Shown here one piece after another: positions 212-35,029 of a stretch of DNA of 64,000 bases. The DNA lies in IMG/VR virus record IMGVR_UViG_3300030012_001663, positions 1 to 64,000 of that record; one strand, written 5' to 3'. The notes beneath the pieces are model-generated. The model made no database searches. It was given only the letters and a program-made list of their open reading frames with translations, and had not been told where the DNA came from. Source of the DNA: a virus. Both the position numbers and the translations under genes were made by a program. Position 1 is the first letter of the stretch; each line of letters begins with the position of its first letter.

Positions 212-1084
212 ATGAATCAATTAGAAAGAAATCAAGTAATACAAGGATTTAAGATCATTTGCTGGATTATTGTCAAGTGTATAGGCTTTGCTATAGGTGT
301 AGCCGGGCTCTTGTACCTTATACTATCTATATTCACTCTATCAGCACACGCTCAATCATCTAATATAGAAGATAGATTTGGGTATCCTGATGGATATGAA
401 AGAATATATAATGATACTTACAGTAAATTCCTGAGACAACATCCATTGAAAGACAATAACGTAGTTAAATACTTCAATGGCAAGAGAAAATATAATAATA
501 ATGTATGGGCAGCTGTATATGATTATGATATTGGACCAAGAAACTTACACCAATGTGCAGATGCAGTAATATATATGCGTGCAAGTTGGATGTATAGTGA
601 AGGCAGAGGGGATGATATTGAATTAGTGGCCAGTGATGGCACTATTATGCCTTATAGAGACTGGCTCAAGGGTGTTATATGGACACCAGAGGGTAATGGT
701 CTTAAGCAAGTGATGACAAAACCACGTAAAGATAACTGTGAAACATTCAGAAAGTATCTTGACCATGTATTTATATGGGCAGGTACGTATAGTTTACAAA
801 CATATGAGACTTATCAGGTAGATATCTATGATATTCAACCAGGTGATGTCTTTGTAGTAGGTGGATTTCCAGGACATGCAGTCAATGTAGTAGATGTTGG
901 CGTTAATGAAGAGACTGGACATAAGTATTTTATATTAGCACAAAGCTATATGCCTGCACAGCAGAATCAAATACTACTTAATCCTGCTACAGGAGATGTA
1001 TTCTATGAGTTATTTGACTTTATGACTGAAGTCAGAACACCAGACTGGACATTTCACGTAAATGACTTAAGAAGATGGCACTAA
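212..1084 (+). CDS. DUF4846-family exported protein
   Basis: N-terminal hydrophobic segment; motifs LHQCADAV, GDVFVVGGFPGHAV, LAQSYMPAQ. Confidence 0.75.
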   Translation: MNQLERNQVIQGFKIICWIIVKCIGFAIGVAGLLYLILSIFTLSAHAQSSNIEDRFGYPDGYERIYNDTYSKFLRQHPLKDNNVVKYFNGKRKYNNNVWAAVYDYDIGPRNLHQCADAVIYMRASWMYSEGRGDDIELVASDGTIMPYRDWLKGVIWTPEGNGLKQVMTKPRKDNCETFRKYLDHVFIWAGTYSLQTYETYQVDIYDIQPGDVFVVGGFPGHAVNVVDVGVNEETGHKYFILAQSYMPAQQNQILLNPATGDVFYELFDFMTEVRTPDWTFHVNDLRRWH

Positions 1085-20946: not shown

Positions 20947-22938
20947 ATGAATCACTGGGTAATGGATTATGAAACATTGTCTAACTGTTTCACAGCTGTA
21001 TTTGAGCATTACAAAACTGAAGAAAGAAAGATCTTTGTAATACATGAGCTGAGAGATGATAGAAATGAGTTCATAAAGTTTTTAGAACAGAATGTAAATA
21101 ACAAAGAGTGGCATATATCCTATAATGGATTAGCATTTGATGGACAGGTCACTCAATATATAATAGACAATTGCAGTGATTGGGAAGAACTAGAGGCAAG
21201 TGCTGTAGCAAGAATCATTTATGCATATGCACAGAAGACTATTGAATCAGCAAACAATAAACAGTTTTCTGATTATGCTTTATGGCAAATGTCTATAGGA
21301 CAGATTGATATGTTTAAGATGCATCATTGGGACAACCCCGCTAAAAGATCAAGTCTTAAATGGATTCAATATAGTATGGACTGGGAGAATATTATAGATA
21401 TGCCTATATCACATACTACAGAGATTAATACACAAGAAGAGATAGATACTATAATAAAGTATTGTGTCAATGATGTAAGCTCTACAAAAGAGATATTCAA
21501 TAGATCAAAATCTTTGGTATCATTGCGTAAAGTGTTGACAAAAGAATATGGTATAAATCTATTCAGTGCATCTGAGCCAAGAATAAGTAAAGAGCTGTTT
21601 GGTTATTACTTATCAAGGAACTTAAATATACCTAAGTATGAACTTAAAAAAATGAGATCACACAGAAATGTGATTAAGTTTAAAGATATTATACTACCGT
21701 ATATAAAGTTTCAGTCTCCAGAATTTCAAAGATTACTTGAAAGATTCAAGGCAGTAGAACTTGACCCAAGTAATTTAAGAGGAGGATTTAAGTACAAAGT
21801 AAACTATAAGAATATAGAAACACACTTTGGCTTAGGTGGTGCACATGGTGCAAGAGTACCAGGTGTGTATATATCAGATGAAGATTATGTAATCATGTCA
21901 TCAGATGTTACATCATTCTATCCTAATCTTGTAATCAGGAATCGTTGGTCACCAGGACACTTTCCAGCTGAACAGTTTTGTGATCAGTATGAGTGGTTCT
22001 TTGAGGAGAGAAAGAAGATACCTAAGAGTAATCCTATGAACTATGTCTATAAGATTATTCTTAACTCTACGTTTGGTCTCAGCAATGATATAAACAGTTT
22101 CTTTTATGATCCAGAGCTCTGTATGAGAATTACAGTAAACGGTCAGCTTACACTGATGATGCTTTATGAAATGATAATGGAAGCAATTCCTGAAGCATTT
22201 GGATTATTACAGAATACAGATGGTATAGAAATAAAAATACCAAGAACACAACAAGATAAATACTTAGAAATTTGTGCTGAGTGGGAGAGAATAACTAACT
22301 TACAACTTGAACATGATGAATATGATAAGCTTATATTGGGAGATGTGAATAACTACATAGGTCAAAATAAGTTTAAGAAGGTTTCAATGGATGAGTACCG
22401 TGAGCTTAGAAAAAGTTCTCCACACTATAAATTCAAAGTAGAACAAGATAAGTTTTATGTAGCACCAACAAAGTTGAAAGGCAGATTTGACTTTCATGAT
22501 CTGATGTTGCACAAGAACAAATCTAAACTTGTTATCAAGAAAGCAATATATAATTATTTCATACATGATATACTACCAGAAGATTATTTAGAAACAAACA
22601 GAAATATTCTAGATTATTGTATTGGTGGTAAATCAAAAGGCAACTGGGAACAGCATGCCCGCTCAATAGAAAATGATGTACTTAAAGAAGAAAAACTTCA
22701 GAAGATAAATAGATACTATATATCTAAGACAGGAGTTAAGATTGTTAAAGTAAACAAGCATGACGGAAGAGAAATACAACTTGAGTCAGGTAAATGGTTG
22801 CAAACAGTATACAATGATATGAAAGTAGAACCTAAATGGGAAAACTATAATATTGATAAAGCATACTATATGCAAGCAATTGAGCAAGAAATAAATAATA
22901 TATTAAATGTTAAAGTTAATCAATTAGAATTATTTTAA
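20947..22938 (+). CDS. polB: Family B DNA polymerase with 3'-5' exonuclease
   Basis: DYET, YNGLAFD, YCVNDV (Exo I-III); SDVTSFYP, KIILNSTFG, QNTDG (Pol A-C). Confidence 0.92.
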   Translation: MNHWVMDYETLSNCFTAVFEHYKTEERKIFVIHELRDDRNEFIKFLEQNVNNKEWHISYNGLAFDGQVTQYIIDNCSDWEELEASAVARIIYAYAQKTIESANNKQFSDYALWQMSIGQIDMFKMHHWDNPAKRSSLKWIQYSMDWENIIDMPISHTTEINTQEEIDTIIKYCVNDVSSTKEIFNRSKSLVSLRKVLTKEYGINLFSASEPRISKELFGYYLSRNLNIPKYELKKMRSHRNVIKFKDIILPYIKFQSPEFQRLLERFKAVELDPSNLRGGFKYKVNYKNIETHFGLGGAHGARVPGVYISDEDYVIMSSDVTSFYPNLVIRNRWSPGHFPAEQFCDQYEWFFEERKKIPKSNPMNYVYKIILNSTFGLSNDINSFFYDPELCMRITVNGQLTLMMLYEMIMEAIPEAFGLLQNTDGIEIKIPRTQQDKYLEICAEWERITNLQLEHDEYDKLILGDVNNYIGQNKFKKVSMDEYRELRKSSPHYKFKVEQDKFYVAPTKLKGRFDFHDLMLHKNKSKLVIKKAIYNYFIHDILPEDYLETNRNILDYCIGGKSKGNWEQHARSIENDVLKEEKLQKINRYYISKTGVKIVKVNKHDGREIQLESGKWLQTVYNDMKVEPKWENYNIDKAYYMQAIEQEINNILNVKVNQLELF

Positions 22939-23370
22939 ATGAGTTACAAACCGCTACCAGAAGGCCTTACTATAAAAAGGTCTTCTGTGCATGGTTTGGG
23001 TCTATTCACAGAAAGAAATATTAAAGAAGGTGAGATACTAGGCACAACCCATGTAACACATACTGAATACTTTACAGAGCATCTAAGAACACCACTAGGT
23101 GGATTTATAAATCATAGTGAAACGCCTAATGCAGAATTAATAAGTTGTGCAAATACAAGAGATATAGAGTGTGGTGTGTTAAAACTTAGAACTCTTCGTG
23201 ATATAAAAGAAGGTGAAGAAATATGTACATATTATTCACTGTATGATCCACCTAGTAAGTTAAAAGATATACAAGTACACGGTATTGATATTATATCAGG
23301 TACAGAAATAGGTTATATTATAGATGATAAAGATTCAAAAAACCAAAACACTAGACACAAAACCAAATAA
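22939..23370 (+). CDS. SET-domain protein (putative lysine methyltransferase)
   Basis: SSVHGLGLFT, GGFINHSETPN, DIKEGEEICTYY. Confidence 0.88.
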   Translation: MSYKPLPEGLTIKRSSVHGLGLFTERNIKEGEILGTTHVTHTEYFTEHLRTPLGGFINHSETPNAELISCANTRDIECGVLKLRTLRDIKEGEEICTYYSLYDPPSKLKDIQVHGIDIISGTEIGYIIDDKDSKNQNTRHKTK

Positions 23371-24157
23371 TAATAGTGCCAATTGCATAGCTCCTAATGT
23401 TATCTATGGATGCATGGGGGGCTGTGTTAATACTTATTGTTATATGGCCCGTTACAACGGGAAAAGAGTTTATGTCAATAAGAATGTTGATCAGATATTT
23501 AATTCAGTTGTAGAATGGGAAAAAACATACTACAAACAACCAGATCAACAAGACCCTATATATACTATGGTAGATGTTGCATGTAACTCAGACCTTGTTC
23601 TGATGCAGAGACATATGCCTGAACCATTGATTGATTATCTAAAGAGATATGATGATCATCCGCAGCTAAATAGTACTATGGCTACTAAGTATCCTAGTCT
23701 TCTTAAATTAGATGTGAATCACTTTAATAAGAAACCAAGAGTTAGAGTAAGCCTAATGCCTCAGAAATATTCTGATATACTTGAGCCTAAAATGCAAAAG
23801 ATATCTAGCCGTATTGTAGATATCAATAGGCTTAAAGACTTAGGATGGGAAGTACATTGTAATTACAGCCCTCTTATATTCTATCCAGGATGGAAAGAAG
23901 AGTATAATACATTATTTAGCGTTGTAAAAGAGATAGCTGGAGTAAATAAGTGTGAGGTAATTGCACTTACAAATCACAGAAATCAAATGGCTAAAGCATC
24001 ACCAGAAGCTAGAGAACTGATGAGACGTTCATATGAGATTAAAAATCAATCTGGCGTGATGAGATATCCTATAGCACATAAAGGAAGACTTATATCAGAG
24101 TTTAAAGATATTTATAAAAAATATTTTCCTTTAGAAACTATAAGATATATCTTTTAA
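23324..24157 (+). CDS. splB: Spore photoproduct lyase-like radical SAM enzyme
   Basis: GCMGGCVNTYCY, DVACNSDL, ATK, RVRVSL, SPLIFYPGWKEEY, FP..IRYIF. Confidence 0.8.
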   Translation: MIKIQKTKTLDTKPNNNSANCIAPNVIYGCMGGCVNTYCYMARYNGKRVYVNKNVDQIFNSVVEWEKTYYKQPDQQDPIYTMVDVACNSDLVLMQRHMPEPLIDYLKRYDDHPQLNSTMATKYPSLLKLDVNHFNKKPRVRVSLMPQKYSDILEPKMQKISSRIVDINRLKDLGWEVHCNYSPLIFYPGWKEEYNTLFSVVKEIAGVNKCEVIALTNHRNQMAKASPEARELMRRSYEIKNQSGVMRYPIAHKGRLISEFKDIYKKYFPLETIRYIF

Positions 24158-24209: not shown

Positions 24210-25112
24210 ATGGGACATAAAAGACCAACAGAAGTAACACGTAGTTACTTAGAAGCTGCCCCGCTTCCAAAATGGGGACCATCTTACACTGTAGTATCAC
24301 ATAAACAAGTGATGGACAGAACTACAAAACTACTAGAAGATAGTGGTTTTGCTATAACAAGAGAGCTATACAGAGCTAATCTAGATGCAAAAGTTGCACA
24401 GGGTATATATCACATTAAACCTAAGACAAACAGCGCTATAACAGATCCTAAAGTTCTAAATGAAACAGAATTAGGGATGATGTTTGCCTGGACAAACTCT
24501 TATGATAAAACTATTAGATTCCAATGTGCTATTGGAGGATATGTAGGAGTATGTTACAATGGTATGGTGGCCGGTGATCTTATGAATTTCAAAAGAAAAC
24601 ATACCGGTGCAGCTGATCATGATATACATATGCAAATATCTAATCAGATTAAGAATGCTGAGAAGATATACAAGCGTATTATAGATGACAGAGATGCATT
24701 AAGAAATACACCATTAACAAAAGAACAACAGGCTGCACTATTAGGTAGACTTTATTTTAATGAAGAGCTACTTGATAATACGCAGATGACATGTTGTAGA
24801 AATGAAATGAACAAGCCATCTTATGATTACAACTGTGATCAAGATAATGCTTGGACATTTTATAATCATGTAACACATGCGTTCAAAACATCTCATCCTA
24901 GAACATGGTTGAGTGATACACAAACGTTTCATGATTTTATTACTGCTGAGATTTTAGGTCAGCACCGTCCAGTTCAAGTAGATAATACCTATAATGCATT
25001 ATCTAAATATAGTGAGCTGAACATTGATGAAGATGAGGATTGGTTAGAAGTACCTAACACCGTTGATATTGATGATGTACAATTAACTGCACAACATTTG
25101 ATTAAAACGTGA
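24210..25112 (+). CDS. DUF932-family phage/plasmid protein
   Basis: YTVVSH, NSYDK, VCYNGMV, KRKHTG, NAWTFYNHVT. Confidence 0.75.
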   Translation: MGHKRPTEVTRSYLEAAPLPKWGPSYTVVSHKQVMDRTTKLLEDSGFAITRELYRANLDAKVAQGIYHIKPKTNSAITDPKVLNETELGMMFAWTNSYDKTIRFQCAIGGYVGVCYNGMVAGDLMNFKRKHTGAADHDIHMQISNQIKNAEKIYKRIIDDRDALRNTPLTKEQQAALLGRLYFNEELLDNTQMTCCRNEMNKPSYDYNCDQDNAWTFYNHVTHAFKTSHPRTWLSDTQTFHDFITAEILGQHRPVQVDNTYNALSKYSELNIDEDEDWLEVPNTVDIDDVQLTAQHLIKT

Positions 25113-25628: not shown

Positions 25629-25913
25629 ATGAATGCAAAAGAAAGAAAAGAAAGACCTGTATACACAGGCGTTTTAAAATATTTTCCAGATGCAATAATG
25701 GAAGTTGCTAAAGTATCTTTAGCGGGTAATGAGCAACACCATCCAGATAAACCATTGCATTGGGACCGTAGTAAATCTACAGATGAGCTTGATGCGTTAG
25801 CAAGACATCTGATTGATGCAGGCAAACTTGATGATGATGGCCAACGTCACTCAGCTAAAGTTGCTTGGAGAGCCCTAGCTAATCTACAAAAAGAGATAGA
25901 GAATGAAAGGTGA
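25629..25913 (+). CDS. DUF5664 dATP/dGTP diphosphohydrolase-like protein
   Basis: YFPDAIMEVAKVSLAGNEQH..W..DALARHL..HSAKVAWRAL. Confidence 0.75.
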   Translation: MNAKERKERPVYTGVLKYFPDAIMEVAKVSLAGNEQHHPDKPLHWDRSKSTDELDALARHLIDAGKLDDDGQRHSAKVAWRALANLQKEIENER

Positions 25914-30339: not shown

Positions 30340-30627
30340 TTACCATTTTACTTTATGTGACCAATATCTTGCTGATAGCTTTGAAGGTTTAGAATCTTGT
30401 GCATTATGTCTTGCATAGTATGACTTTTTTCTAGCCTTATCTTTAGCTGACTTAGGGTTTTTACCTGCACCTCTTACACCTTGCTGACCAAAACGTATAG
30501 TCTTTACTTTATCACCAACCTTAGCAACCACAACATGTGATTTAGTTTTATGATTAGGTGTGCGCTTTGGTTTATTATAACCTGACACTCCTGCTCTTGC
30601 TAATCTTGGGTCTCTCTTCTTTGCCAT
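30340..30627 (-). CDS. Small Lys/Arg-rich protein (DUF5754-like)
   Basis: YNKPKRTP.H..KSHVV..KTIRFGQQG..ARH..SARYWS. Confidence 0.75.
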   Translation of the reverse strand: MAKKRDPRLARAGVSGYNKPKRTPNHKTKSHVVVAKVGDKVKTIRFGQQGVRGAGKNPKSAKDKARKKSYYARHNAQDSKPSKLSARYWSHKVKW

Positions 30628-30631
30628 CTTC

Positions 30632-32344
30632 TTATGGGACCTGTGTTGATCCAGTTGTTAATGTTGTGTTTGTTGTATAATATGTCATAGAACCAAATAT
30701 TCTAAAATAACTTCCATTATTAAAATCACCTGCATACAAGTTTTGTAAACCAAAGTAACTTGTAATACCTGGGTGTTGTTTCATTGGCTGTAATCTTAAT
30801 GAACCTATTACAGCTGGGTCATTAGTAGTAGTACTTATACTGCATGATTTAACTTCATGGTCAAAACCATCAACAAAATCAAGGAAAGGAGATTGAAGAG
30901 TTGCTCCTGCACCTTGGGCATCAAAAGGCCAACCATGTATATATAATGCAGATGTGCTTCCAGAATTCCCTGATATAGCTGTTGCTAATACTTGAATAGT
31001 AAAATCACAATAAACCAAATTACCATGTCTAACCCAGTGACCTTGTTGTATTTGATAACTAGATATATTAAACTCTGTTGCAACTGTAGCACTTACTCTA
31101 GGAGTCCAGCTACCTCTTGTTTCTACTAGACCTTGAAAGCCTGTAAATTCATTCCATGTTATAGTATCTGTAAATGTATTTATATAATCTGCAAGGGTTA
31201 TTGTTGCTTGATAAGTAGCACTTTCTGCCTCTACCCATACAATCTGTCCATCTGATATTAGAGTATCACTAATATTATTTAAATCAGCAAGGGTAGCTAC
31301 ATTATAGAATGCCCCTTTTATATCTTCAATATCAAGTGTTTGATTTGAACCTGAAAGGCTAGACAAATTAACTGATCCACTAAAACCACCTTCAGCACCT
31401 GCTGTACTTGTAAATTCAAGATTTGATCCGTTTAATGCAACATTAGTTATACCTAACCAACTAGGCATTTGTAATGCACGTGATTGAAATCCAGTTACGT
31501 GACCAAATTGATCAAGCTTAAGACCATTATTATTATTATTTGGATCCTGTCCAACAAGTAATTGAGGATCAATTGTATTACCATAACTTAAAGTTATAGC
31601 TGAACCAGCCGAAGTACCTGTAGCAGTAGGTGTACCATGATCAATAGTACCACCTGATACAGTAATTAGATTACCACCTGTTAGTGTTGTACCACCAGCT
31701 GCTGTCTCAATTATATTACCATCTGTATCTACAGATAAATTATAAGTTGCTGTACCTGTCTTATTACCTTGACCATAGTCAACAAGCTTTACATTCTTAT
31801 GAATATCTACTATTTCTGCACCTGCTGTTGTTTTAATTTCAATTACTGGGTTATTACCAGCAGCACCAAGTCTTATACCAGCACCTGAATAATTATATAC
31901 AAATGCAAATCCATCTCCATCATCATCCCAACCAAAACTTGCTTTGAAGTTATTATCTTGTTTAATCAAAAATTCAGGATCACCTCCTGTAACTGAGCTA
32001 GGTTTGTTTATAAAGAACCTATCACAGTTATTAAATCTCATTTGATACATACCGTTACTTAGTGGTGGTGATTGAGATAATTGACTATTCTCAATACTAT
32101 CTCCACTTGCAGTAAACATAGGGATAGTTCTTTCAGAACCTGAGCCAGATATTTCTCCTACATCAAAGTAGGCTTTTAAATCTTTTAATCTAATGAGTTC
32201 ATTATGCATCTTAGGAGCCGTGAACATCATATCAACATCTAGCTTAGGTGTCTTACCTAAAACAAGAAAGTCCTGATCTTCACCAGTTTTTGTAACCTTT
32301 TTACGGGTTAACAGACCCATCATGTCTAATAACATATTTCCCAT
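30632..32344 (-). CDS. Tail fibre protein (shared N-terminal anchor)
   Basis: Shared N-motif; G/T-rich fibre repeats (LDQFGHVTG); C-terminal GSWTP..GHWVRHGNLV..GWPF receptor-binding-type domain. Confidence 0.75.
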   Translation of the reverse strand: MGNMLLDMMGLLTRKKVTKTGEDQDFLVLGKTPKLDVDMMFTAPKMHNELIRLKDLKAYFDVGEISGSGSERTIPMFTASGDSIENSQLSQSPPLSNGMYQMRFNNCDRFFINKPSSVTGGDPEFLIKQDNNFKASFGWDDDGDGFAFVYNYSGAGIRLGAAGNNPVIEIKTTAGAEIVDIHKNVKLVDYGQGNKTGTATYNLSVDTDGNIIETAAGGTTLTGGNLITVSGGTIDHGTPTATGTSAGSAITLSYGNTIDPQLLVGQDPNNNNNGLKLDQFGHVTGFQSRALQMPSWLGITNVALNGSNLEFTSTAGAEGGFSGSVNLSSLSGSNQTLDIEDIKGAFYNVATLADLNNISDTLISDGQIVWVEAESATYQATITLADYINTFTDTITWNEFTGFQGLVETRGSWTPRVSATVATEFNISSYQIQQGHWVRHGNLVYCDFTIQVLATAISGNSGSTSALYIHGWPFDAQGAGATLQSPFLDFVDGFDHEVKSCSISTTTNDPAVIGSLRLQPMKQHPGITSYFGLQNLYAGDFNNGSYFRIFGSMTYYTTNTTLTTGSTQVP

Positions 32345-32586
32345 TATCTTTTCTTTCCTTTATGTAAACCATGCTTAGCATGTTGTTTACCTTTTTTAGT
32401 TGCTGCTCTTTTCTTTTTATTTGCTGCAGCTAGCTTAGCTCTACCTTTCTTAGTGCTTTTTAGCCTAGATATAGTTTTAGCAGGAGCATATACTTCTCCT
32501 GTCTCAGAACTCTTTTTACCAGATGCGGTTCTCCACTTCTGTTTTGTCCATCTATCTAAGCTCTTTTGTCTAGCTGTTTTAGCCAT
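32344..32586 (-). CDS. Small basic protein, C-terminal half of DUF5872-like family
   Basis: QKSLDRWTKQKWRT.SGK....GEVYAP. Confidence 0.7.
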   Translation of the reverse strand: MAKTARQKSLDRWTKQKWRTASGKKSSETGEVYAPAKTISRLKSTKKGRAKLAAANKKKRAATKKGKQHAKHGLHKGKKR

Positions 32587-32588
32587 AA

Positions 32589-32723
32589 CTACTCACTTTG
32601 TGCTGCAGCATGTGAGCCATCACAATTTCCTTCAGGATCTTGTGTGTTTCCACATACGCAGGGATTAATTCCATTATTCATTGCTATGTACATTTGTATA
32701 CCTTCGTTTAACCAGTGATTCAT
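32589..32723 (-). CDS. Minimal CDGSH iron-sulfur domain protein
   Basis: CVCGNTQDPEGNCDGSH; ATG 32723. Confidence 0.75.
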   Translation of the reverse strand: MNHWLNEGIQMYIAMNNGINPCVCGNTQDPEGNCDGSHAAAQSE

Positions 32724-32727
32724 AATT

Positions 32728-33183
32728 TTACTTCTTAATAGTTTGAAACTTTTCAAATCCACGTGATCCAAAATAAGCCACGTAAATAGTAACAAGGAGT
32801 GTCTTGAGTAATTCTACCCAACTCTCATCTATATCAAAAGCAATATCAAGTGAGTCTAATACAATATAAAGAGATGTAATAACAGTAAGATATATTAGTG
32901 TCATTGGTCTAGTATTCTTACTTAACCAAGAATCAGATTTCATATCTGAGTCCCAACGCTTGCTTACTTCTTGCATCTCAATCATATCAAGCTCTAAAAG
33001 CTTCATTGCTTTTTCTTTATCTTCTGGTGTTAGTGAGGGCTCATTATCAATTAAACCTTTTACTACACCTAATACACCTGCGTCAGGTAAAACATCTCCA
33101 ACTACACCTAATATACTAGGTACTTTATCAGTTAGAAACTTACCAACCTTGGTATCTTTAAATTTTTTCTTAGGTTTTGACAT
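32728..33183 (-). CDS. Holin-like membrane protein (GTA/3TM type)
   Basis: RWDSDMKSDSWLSKNTRPMTL..TM..TM..AYFGSRGFEK. Confidence 0.7.
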   Translation of the reverse strand: MSKPKKKFKDTKVGKFLTDKVPSILGVVGDVLPDAGVLGVVKGLIDNEPSLTPEDKEKAMKLLELDMIEMQEVSKRWDSDMKSDSWLSKNTRPMTLIYLTVITSLYIVLDSLDIAFDIDESWVELLKTLLVTIYVAYFGSRGFEKFQTIKK

Positions 33184-33380
33184 TATTTCTTTTTTCCTCT
33201 ATAACCTCCACCGGCTGCTTTATATGCTTTTGCAAGCATTTGAGCTTTACGTGCTGACCACTGACCTGGTCTTCCACCTTTGCTACCCGCTTTGATTCTA
33301 TTAAACAATCTTTTACGCATTGTAGGCTTTGTATAATTACCTGATGCGTTTACTGTACTTTTTTTCTTTTTTGCTGGCAT
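33183..33380 (-). CDS. Small basic protein, N-terminal half of DUF5872-like family
   Basis: YTKPTMRKRLF..IKAGSKGGRPGQWSARKAQMLAKAYKAAGGGY; ATG 33380. Confidence 0.75.
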   Translation of the reverse strand: MPAKKKKSTVNASGNYTKPTMRKRLFNRIKAGSKGGRPGQWSARKAQMLAKAYKAAGGGYRGKKK

Positions 33381-33399
33381 AATTATTCTTTTATAACAT

Positions 33400-33633
33400 T
33401 TACTTGCTATGTCTCTTCTGTACTTTAAAGTTAGCAACTAAGGATGCTCCCTTGTGAGGTACAAACTTTCCAGAGTGCTTCATAAGTCTAAAACCAGATC
33501 CACTTTTCATCCAATGGAATCCTGCTGGAGCTTTTACCCCTTTAGTTCCAGTTGAACCACCTTTTTTATAGTTTACAACGCTTTTAGGCATTGTTCCTTT
33601 TTTCTTTGCTGCTTTTATTTTTTTTGCTGGCAT
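33400..33633 (-). CDS. Small Lys-rich protein
   Basis: MPAKKIKAAKKKG..KAPAGFHWMKSG..LMKH. Confidence 0.7.
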   Translation of the reverse strand: MPAKKIKAAKKKGTMPKSVVNYKKGGSTGTKGVKAPAGFHWMKSGSGFRLMKHSGKFVPHKGASLVANFKVQKRHSK

Positions 33634-33643
33634 ATCTATAATT

Positions 33644-34249
33644 TTATATTGCTTCTGTTCCTAGTGTTCCATCATTAGCTACAGTCAATTTATATACTGT
33701 ACCGTTTGGTGATGATAACCTAACTTCAGTTGCAGGTCCTATTGTAATTTGATGCGTATTGTTTGAAACAGTTACGCCATCTCCCTTTAATGATTTAAAT
33801 TGTAAAGTCTCTCCACTCTTTTGAGCAAACACTCCTGAGCCATCACCAACTGATTGACCCCATAGGTTTTCACCAGTATTAGGCTCACCTAAAGTGTTAA
33901 TCTCTAAGAAGTCTCCGTTCTCAGCTACACTAAGATTCAGAGATAAAGACTTTAACTTTCTCAAATTTACTGTACAGTCTTCTGTCTCAGGATCAATTAC
34001 TGTATCTTTATAGACACCTGCTGTACTAGTAAGGTTTCCTGTTGGTACATTTACAAATGTGCATACATCTGCAGGTACCTTTAAATCAGAAACCTTTATA
34101 AGCTTAACTGACTTATATGGAATAGGAGAAGCAACACCGGTCATATCAGGCTTCTCATGTATACCAATAGGTATAACATCATTAGACTTAGCCTTCTTAA
34201 TCAGCTTACCTCTCTTTAATAAACTTAATACGTCAGTAAGAATATTCAT
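33644..34249 (-). CDS. Fibre/appendage protein (shared N-terminal anchor)
   Basis: ATG 34249 gives MNILTDVLSLLKRGK..NDVIPIG; fibre motifs GVFAQKSGETLQFKSL and LSSPNGTVYKLTVANDGTL. Confidence 0.7.
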   Translation of the reverse strand: MNILTDVLSLLKRGKLIKKAKSNDVIPIGIHEKPDMTGVASPIPYKSVKLIKVSDLKVPADVCTFVNVPTGNLTSTAGVYKDTVIDPETEDCTVNLRKLKSLSLNLSVAENGDFLEINTLGEPNTGENLWGQSVGDGSGVFAQKSGETLQFKSLKGDGVTVSNNTHQITIGPATEVRLSSPNGTVYKLTVANDGTLGTEAI

Positions 34250-34250
34250 T

Positions 34251-34502
34251 TTATTTCTTTTTAGATGCTGTCCATCCACCCATTTTATATGCCTGCATTC
34301 TCTTCTTAGAACCACCGTCACCGTAAACATATCTTTTTGTCTCAGATCCGTTTCTCATTTTTTGTTCCATGTTGTCAGCCATATCCATAGATGCACCACC
34401 ATAAGTCATCTTATTTAAAAGAGACTCACCACCGTTTTTCTTATAGCCCATTGCTTTTAGTTTATTAAACAAAGCTTGAGCGCCTTTCTTTTTTTCAGCC
34501 AT
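34251..34502 (-). CDS. Small basic protein with (Y/M)xxGG repeats
   Basis: YKKNGG, MTYGG, YGDGG, YKMGG; low complexity. Confidence 0.65.
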   Translation of the reverse strand: MAEKKKGAQALFNKLKAMGYKKNGGESLLNKMTYGGASMDMADNMEQKMRNGSETKRYVYGDGGSKKRMQAYKMGGWTASKKK

Positions 34503-34503
34503 T

Positions 34504-34650
34504 TTATTCAATATTTAATGTTAATGTACATACTAATAAAAACAACCTTGCGGTTGTAAATGCATGCTTCTCATCAGGAAGAAAAAACTCCCATCCTAGA
34601 GCACACCTTTCATGAGGCCAATGAAAGGCTATTTCTAAATCCCAATTCAT
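34504..34650 (-). CDS. 48-aa beta-rich mini-protein (not in ORF track)
   Basis: MNWDLEIAFHWPHERCALGWEFFLPDEKHAFTTARLFLLVCTLTLNIE; coupled to both neighbours. Confidence 0.6.
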   Translation of the reverse strand: MNWDLEIAFHWPHERCALGWEFFLPDEKHAFTTARLFLLVCTLTLNIE

Positions 34651-34781
34651 CTTCCTTGACCTCTATATTTCTTTTTGTAGTTCTTACTAAGCTTATTAAC
34701 TGATGTCTTTGTCTTAGCATGAACTCCTGGTCTCTTTTTCTTAGCGGGCTTAACGTAAGCTTTTAGTACTAATCTAGCCAT
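34647..34781 (-). CDS. 44-aa Lys/Arg-rich protein (not in ORF track)
   Basis: MARLVLKAYVKPAKKKRPGVHAKTKTSVNKLSKNYKKKYRGQGR; TAATG and ATGA overlaps. Confidence 0.7.
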   Translation of the reverse strand: MARLVLKAYVKPAKKKRPGVHAKTKTSVNKLSKNYKKKYRGQGR

Positions 34782-35029
34782 TACTTTTTCTTTCTTGGTC
34801 TACCTCTACGTTTTTTACCCTTAGCAGCATCTACTACATCACCAGCTTGATCAGCTACTTCTGAGATAGCATCTGCTACATCTTTCATTTCTTCTTTAAC
34901 CCTCTTCACTCTTTGCTTAGTTGCTTTTACAACAGCAGTGGCTCTCTCATCAACTGTAGTCTTTGACCAGACCCAGTCCCATGCACTCTTTACAGAGGAT
35001 TTAATTTGGTTTAATACTTTTTTAAACAT
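34781..35029 (-). CDS. Small amphipathic/basic protein with AT-hook-like tail
   Basis: Ends KGKKRRGRPRKKK. Confidence 0.65.
   Translation of the reverse strand: MFKKVLNQIKSSVKSAWDWVWSKTTVDERATAVVKATKQRVKRVKEEMKDVADAISEVADQAGDVVDAAKGKKRRGRPRKKK

Follow-up and report, generated by a model that had tools for sequence, protein, structure and literature searches.

A short-form spore photoproduct lyase-family radical SAM protein, probably a light-independent repair enzyme, encoded in the replication region of a marine crAss-like phage

In Bacillus spores, DNA bound by small acid-soluble spore proteins (SASPs) yields spore photoproduct (SP). The corresponding spore photoproduct lyase (SPL, or SplB), known from Bacillus subtilis and from Geobacillus thermodenitrificans (structures 4FHC, 4FHD, and 4FHF) and represented by the NCBIfam model TIGR04070, is a radical S-adenosylmethionine (SAM) enzyme with a partial TIM-barrel core and C-terminal helices. 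In SPL, the 5′-dihydrothymine is bound by Arg193, Glu268, and Tyr339, the 3′ thymine is held by the Ser76-Ser79 loop, SAM is contacted by Lys174 and Ser195, Cys140 is the hydrogen atom donor, and Tyr98 and Tyr96 form the radical relay (PMC3467042). SplB-like genes of non-sporulating bacteria are found in SOS-linked neighborhoods (PMC3765255), those of alpha- and betaproteobacteria carry predicted LexA sites (PMC3323433), and TIGR03886 is the curated SPL-like family of such bacteria. A phage-encoded enzyme with the SPL fold, gp53 of Pseudomonas phage M6, is a radical SAM protein that isomerizes glycinyl-thymine in phage DNA as part of thymidine hypermodification (Lee et al., PMC8989533). We found no report of a phage SPL-type repair enzyme in the searchable literature. 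Here, we describe a short-form SPL-family gene in a 64,000-nt stretch of viral DNA (positions 1 to 64,000 of IMG/VR record IMGVR_UViG_3300030012_001663; the window is this whole stretch) and compare its product with these three systems. An earlier note, made from the letters of this DNA alone, had read the gene as possibly part of a spore-like system of protection against UV.

The product of this gene, hereafter the query (277 aa), is an intact SPL-family radical SAM protein, as the earlier note had proposed, and the assignment is sound at the family level. Residues 7-219 match the Pfam SPL family PF20903 with 66.9 bits against a gathering threshold of 27 (E = 1.9e-18; E = 6.8e-20 in the search of the genome record). 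The best sequence matches in the PDB are the G. thermodenitrificans SPL entries (4FHC, E = 2.6e-10 as a single sequence), and a profile of the family aligns with 4FHC over native residues 68-339 (E = 4e-26), although the identity of the query to SPL is only about 19-20%. Judged by profile scores, the query is nearer to TIGR03886 (143.9 bits under a cut-off of 437.55; model positions 61-346) than to the true-SPL equivalog TIGR04070 (60.7 bits under a cut-off of 400; model positions 64-270). A relative, P0135, reaches 243 bits over about the same TIGR03886 positions (about 61-346), and P0184, at 566.6 bits, is a genuine member of that family.

The fold supports the same assignment. An AlphaFold2 model, built on an alignment of 39 diverse relatives, reached a mean predicted local distance difference test (pLDDT) score of 96 and a predicted template modeling score (pTM) of 0.92. 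Six SPL entries headed the Foldseek results (TM-score of 0.80 to 4FHC, E = 1.7e-15), with the next radical SAM enzymes at about 0.5, and VIA-align placed model residues 1-277 on SPL residues 62-341 with a Z-score of 26.4 and a root mean square deviation of 2.4 Å over 265 aligned residues, the runner-up radical SAM fold being RlmN with a Z-score of 13.9. The SPL core is therefore present, but the description of the protein as a full SplB did not stand, as the first ~60 residues are absent and with them SPL's N-terminal alpha/beta domain (a four-stranded sheet and three helices) is not recovered. All 39 aligned short forms begin at a common point, ~13 residues ahead of the Ser76-Ser79 loop, so the shortening is a matter of architecture and not an assembly artifact; what the short form retains is a minimal SPL core, most of the N-terminal domain being left out. 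In a midpoint-rooted maximum-likelihood tree, the short forms constitute a clade (support 100/98) that adjoins, or branches within, genuine TIGR03886 (P0184). The query differs from that nearest curated family in lacking the ~60 N-terminal model positions and in belonging to a phage replication module, where the bacterial splB genes are predicted to be SOS regulated (PMC3323433).

To compare active sites, we took the residue roles from PMC3467042, located the equivalents by profile-to-4FHC alignment, and counted conservation in the 39-sequence alignment of diverse short forms. The residues that read dihydrothymine in SPL are nearly invariant: the equivalent of Arg193 (R141) is kept in 39 of 39 sequences, that of Glu268 (E211) in 38, and that of Tyr339 (Y275) in 37. 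The Ser76-Ser79 loop is likewise retained, with S18 in 38/39, and so are the SAM contacts, the counterparts of Lys174 and Ser195 being K122 (37/39) and S143 (35/39). In the HMMER alignment to Geobacillus SPL, C87 of the motif DVACNSD aligns with Cys140 of AACTSD, and Y38 and Y40, which flank C39 (YCY), align with Tyr96 and Tyr98. Among the diverse short forms the two tyrosines are kept in 37 and 32 sequences, respectively, and the donor cysteine is kept in 27 and missing in 12. Both sets of residues that characterize SPL, namely the Cys140/141 donor with its Tyr96/Tyr98 relay and the Arg193/Glu268/Tyr339 group, are thus present in the query by alignment. Close relatives, defined as the 120 clusters of its own lineage with >80% identity to the query, all keep the patterns CxGGCxxxYCY and D[VI]ACN[ST]D, so that the assignment of the YCY tyrosines and the donor cysteine in the earlier note is borne out. 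The motifs RVRVS, CEVIALT, and the C-terminal IRYIF are also kept in these clusters, save for a few conservative substitutions and one divergent C terminus. That these five key motifs are retained across 120 clusters points to an active enzyme under purifying selection.

The genomic context places the gene among replication genes. The window lies within a 95,396-bp record, estimated to be 83% complete, whose genes include those for tail ring proteins 1 and 2 of the crAss type, along with two giant open reading frames (ORFs) (Table 1). Its replication set comprises an SNF2 helicase, uracil-DNA glycosylase (UDG), DnaB, an AAA_24 ATPase, a primase, RusA, a PD-(D/E)XK nuclease, ribonucleotide reductase, and a dATP/dGTP diphosphohydrolase domain, and it parallels that of Cellulophaga phage phi14:2 (Crassvirales). 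Together with the tail ring proteins and the likeness of its PolB to that of phi14:2, this identifies the source as a marine crAss-like phage; from phi14:2 and the G+C content of 33%, the host is probably a non-sporulating member of the Bacteroidota. The SPL-like ORF was said to sit two genes downstream of polB, and it is indeed the second ORF after polB, with a SET-domain ORF between the two that overlaps it by 47 nt.

With 1443 protein clusters (90% identity) and 159 loci in IMG/VR, the lineage is large. Short-form relatives with 43-48% identity to P0135 or P0129 also occur outside it, in four or more further phage groups, among them one with a complete 169-kb genome. The neighbors in those groups encode DnaB, PolA, a 5′-3′ exonuclease, UDG, a dNMP kinase, a PIF1-type helicase, and a primase-like protein. 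Across at least five phage lineages, the gene is thus found among genes for DnaB, PolA or PolB, 5′-3′ exonuclease, UDG, primase, and dNMP kinase, and this recurrent placement in replication modules supports DNA as the substrate. A search for related loci with P0168 as the query found none, and tblastn of the 277-aa protein and two distant relatives against 50,697 GenBank phage records, phi14:2 included, gave no match and thus no cultured carrier. Among 185,579 prokaryote species, only four contigs of metagenome-assembled genomes carried a close homolog; these are probably mis-binned phages, as their taxon labels are inconsistent and the contigs measure up to about 100-115 kb.

Within the lineage, for which we took 80 polB-anchored loci with 61-97% identity as the sample, the position of the SPL-like gene varies. 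It follows polB immediately or after 1-10 inserted genes, comes after the DUF932 and diphosphohydrolase genes, lies upstream of polB by 2.3-5 kb, or is about 17 kb distant. Two allele types were found in these loci, with 70-92% and 32-37% identity to the query, the divergent type being that of L172, L174, L176, L178, and L186-L191, where it occupies other positions around polB. This second allele suggests repeated exchange of SPL family members within the crAss-like lineage. No gene travels with the SPL-like gene across the 80 loci; the SET gene is present in four, once without the lyase, and looks like an independent accessory gene. The SPL-like gene is therefore a stand-alone, position-shifting accessory gene of the replication region. 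Photolyases do not take its place, since none of the nine records searched, those of relatives lacking the SPL-like gene included, had a match to PF00875 or PF03441.

Taken together, the best-supported function, and one that we consider moderately probable on this analysis, is to reverse an SP-like thymine dimer in phage DNA without the need for light. Since the relay and the dihydrothymine-binding residues are retained, the thymine-dimer lyase role that the earlier note had assigned to the gene is the most economical reading. The protein would then be an active, stand-alone radical SAM enzyme, a shortened form of SPL expressed with the replication genes of the phage. By homology, C30, C34, and C39 would bind a [4Fe-4S] cluster that cleaves SAM, and the resulting 5′-deoxyadenosyl radical would take hydrogen from C6 of a thymine in its saturated (dihydro) form, which R141, E211, and Y275 would hold. 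The methylene bridge to the adjacent thymine would then break, Cys87 would give a hydrogen atom back, and the radical would be returned via Y40 and Y38, so that an SP-type thymine dimer in injected or replicating phage DNA would be directly reversed without light. The source of the lesion, we infer, may be sunlight acting on densely packed virion DNA, or on frozen or dried particles.

Sunlight is among the main agents that inactivate viruses in surface seawater, and the recovery of infectivity is usually credited to host photolyase and excision repair. A wider proposal, conceivable but in our view doubtful, is that the packed DNA of sunlit (or frozen or aerosol-dried) marine virions gains the spore-type dimer and that abundant crAss-like phages reverse it in the dark, after injection, with a minimal Cx3Cx4C lyase. 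If this were true, models of marine viral decay would gain both a new class of lesion and a new route of repair. A phage-borne radical SAM lyase that works without light in an abundant lineage would mean that some phages supply dark repair of their own, and spore-type photoproduct might then also form outside spores.

Several points weigh against a role in SP-type repair: (i) both NCBIfam equivalog cut-offs are missed by far; (ii) in the sequence alignment, the phosphate-binding Arg273 of SPL is replaced by threonine in 38/39 short forms (T216 in the query) and the phosphate-binding Lys309 by V or N (V245 in the query), and the beta-hairpin whose tip bears Tyr305 in SPL is 7 columns shorter in the subclade of the query, so that neither these contacts nor a hairpin with an aromatic tip seems to be conserved; (iii) the cluster loop has the spacing Cx3Cx4C, where SPL has Cx3Cx2C, a spacing that we did not find described for radical SAM enzymes in the searchable literature, and its cysteines are only putative ligands of the SAM cluster; (iv) the near-complete relatives G005 (99%), G007 (94%), and G009 (99%) have no SPL-like gene; (v) SP in hydrated phage particles or capsids is not reported in the searchable literature; and (vi) as far as we found, biochemical data exist neither for the short-form branch nor for TIGR03886.

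Point (ii) would also fit an enzyme of altered specificity, which could act on a different lesion or cross-link of a saturated pyrimidine (other dimers formed by UV or radicals, DNA-protein cross-links), on host DNA, or on RNA. The gene is nearer to TIGR03886 than to true SPL, and the loss of the N-terminal domain, the replacement of Arg273 and Lys309, the shortened hairpin, and the missing donor cysteine in 12 of the 39 short forms would all be compatible with such a change. However, conservation in the family is highest in the residues that read dihydrothymine and in the loop for the 3′ thymine, and the consistent replication-module context points to DNA, so we regard a different substrate as rather unlikely.

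A role in DNA base modification, in which the enzyme would tailor a thymine-derived base against host nucleases in the manner of M6 gp53, is unlikely in our assessment and less likely than the repair of an SP-like dimer. There is a precedent: gp53, an SPL-like radical SAM enzyme encoded by a phage, has a thymine derivative in DNA as its substrate and has been shown to take part in thymidine hypermodification (PMC8989533). The accessory nature of the gene and its mobility within the replication module are also what is often seen for counter-defense genes, and the phosphate-contact residues and the hairpin are unlike those of SPL. In a distant marine phage fragment (L107, 3285-7987), moreover, the SPL-like gene directly follows a pair of glutamine amidotransferase and Amidoligase_2 genes and precedes a DUF932 gene; this amidoligase system resembles that of phi14:2, and domains of the glutamine amidotransferase/amidoligase type are listed among the unexplained genes of hypermodification clusters (PMC8989533).

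Against such a role, gp53 (480 aa, with the canonical Cx3Cx2C motif) gives only a remote match to the family profile (86% in hhalign, over 52 columns) and no BLASTP match, whereas true SPL aligns end to end, and the query keeps the SPL-specific Cys-Tyr-Tyr relay. The gene for gp53 belongs to a kinase-transferase-pyridoxal phosphate (PLP) enzyme cluster with a ThyA-type gene nearby, and none of these was found around the window gene. No ThyA-type or ThyX enzyme and no amidoligase were found in the record, and the search for ThyA-type genes in G001-G004 found none, including the SPL-bearing G001 (complete) and G003 (92%). The Pfam annotation of the neighborhood shows neither a kinase nor a transferase nor a PLP partner, though the first two families were not searched by accession, and no gene moves together with the SPL-like gene. 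We thus found neither orthology to gp53 nor a cluster with a 5-hydroxymethyldeoxyuridine kinase, aGPT-Pplase2, a PLP enzyme, and a dUMP hydroxymethylase.

The earlier note had further suggested that tiny basic proteins encoded at 30.3-35.0 kb perhaps coat the packaged DNA, in which sunlight would form SP, in what may be a spore-like system of UV protection; read as a whole, these proteins would be SASP analogs that drive the formation of SP, with the lyase as their functional partner. The ORFs themselves are real and basic (Table 1), and SASP-bound DNA is known to give SP in Bacillus spores; yet the coupling to the lyase failed on co-occurrence, which had been named beforehand as its test. Three of the seven basic proteins (30340-30627, 32344-32586, and 34781-35029) were searched for in relatives. 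All three have homologs in the 94-99% complete relatives that lack the SPL-like gene (G005, G007, and G009), and two SPL-bearing relatives keep them, except for 32344-32586, which is missing from G006. Homologs of the basic proteins are absent from the 10-kb flanks of the distant SPL-bearing phages, the 95-aa protein, the only one searched for there, is not encoded in SPL-bearing records of other lineages when these are searched whole (two are at least 92% complete, namely the 169-kb G001, which is complete, and G003, 92%), and phi14:2 has no homolog of any of the basic ORFs. Because relatives without the SPL-like gene keep the tested basic proteins and the 95-aa one is missing from SPL-bearing phages of other lineages, the lyase is distributed independently of the proteins tested. 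The three tested proteins are core genes of the lineage whose presence does not track the SPL-like gene, and they should not be read as partners of the lyase, being inherited independently of it in the relatives examined. Nor do the sequences resemble SASPs: a search of the 95-kb record with PF00269 gave nothing at E ≤ 1, and the Pfam search of the seven ORFs gave no SASP similarity and only sub-threshold matches to DUF5872 and DUF6321. As the basic ORFs also sit among fiber and lysis genes, apart from the lyase, we consider a spore-like system very improbable.

The cluster loop itself is as the earlier note had read it. In the HMMER alignment to the Geobacillus SPL loop, two residues are inserted between the second and third cysteines, so that C30, C34, and C39 have the spacing Cx3Cx4C and the three cysteines of SPL are all present. 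Of 1.84 billion proteins clustered at 50% identity, only 184 representatives matched at E ≤ 0.001; among the ~280-aa short forms, about a dozen clusters share the loop C-x-G-G-C-x-x-[ST]-Y-C, one has Cx3Cx3C, and many, P0144 among them, have the canonical Cx3Cx2C. Loops of both main lengths are interspersed within the short-form clade of the tree, and the nearest cluster to the query, P0122, has Cx3Cx2C (support 96/94). This interspersion argues that Cx3Cx4C is a recurrent, tolerated loop variant and not a sign of decay. It is hardly credible that the insertion ruined the SAM-binding cluster site and left a degenerate, non-catalytic protein, for although we did not find this spacing described among variants of radical SAM enzymes, all 120 close clusters preserve the three cysteines along with the loop pattern in its exact form, the loop recurs among Cx3Cx2C relatives, and the AlphaFold2 model is confident through it (block pLDDT of 89-97). 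For radical SAM enzymology, it is useful to know that the cluster loop can accommodate two additional residues.

TABLE 1 Positions of the short-form SPL-family gene, its key sites, and other features of the window
Feature	Position	Strand	Basis or remark
Short-form SPL-family radical SAM gene	23324-24157	+	Uninterrupted ATG ORF, 277 aa; Pfam, NCBIfam, AlphaFold2, Foldseek, VIA-align
Cluster loop C30-x3-C34-x4-C39-Y40, with Y38 ahead of the third Cys	23411-23443	+	HMMER alignment to SPL loop
Cys87 codon, equivalent of hydrogen donor Cys140 of Geobacillus SPL	23582-23584	+	HMMER alignment
R141 codon to Y275 codon, via E211 codon (23954-23956)	23744-24148	+	Equivalents of Arg193, Glu268, and Tyr339; profile alignment
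DNA polymerase gene (polB), context only	20947-22938	+	phrog_1252; 32% identical to PolB of Cellulophaga phage phi14:2
SET-domain gene, context only	22939-23370	+	Not linked to the SPL-like gene
DUF932 gene, context only	24210-25112	+	Core polB neighbor in the lineage, with or without the SPL-like gene
Small basic ORFs (seven; 44-95 aa; isoelectric point 10.1-11.7)	30340-35029	-	Late region; not part of the SPL-like feature
Giant ORF, 1913 aa	42261-48002	-	Where phi14:2 has virion RNA polymerase subunits and large structural proteins
Giant ORF, 4426 aa	48007-61287	-	Where phi14:2 has virion RNA polymerase subunits and large structural proteins

Some further observations concern the surroundings of the gene in other phages and elsewhere in the window. 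In the lineage of the complete 169-kb phage (L088, 10886-11715, + strand), two paralogous small ORFs lie directly 3′ of the SPL-like gene; the longer matches a Rieske [2Fe-2S] domain (E = 1.6e-05) and might serve as an electron donor for the radical SAM cluster. A distant phage fragment (L104, 4622-5299, + strand) carries a GIY-YIG/NUMOD1 homing-endonuclease gene about 1.1 kb downstream of its SPL-like gene. In the window, a 94-aa protein encoded at 25629-25913 (+ strand) matches PF18909, the N-terminal dATP/dGTP diphosphohydrolase domain only (E = 4.7e-11), and has an annotated counterpart in phi14:2. At the left end of the window, the product of 212-1084 (+ strand) gives a strong match to DUF4846 (E = 1e-67).

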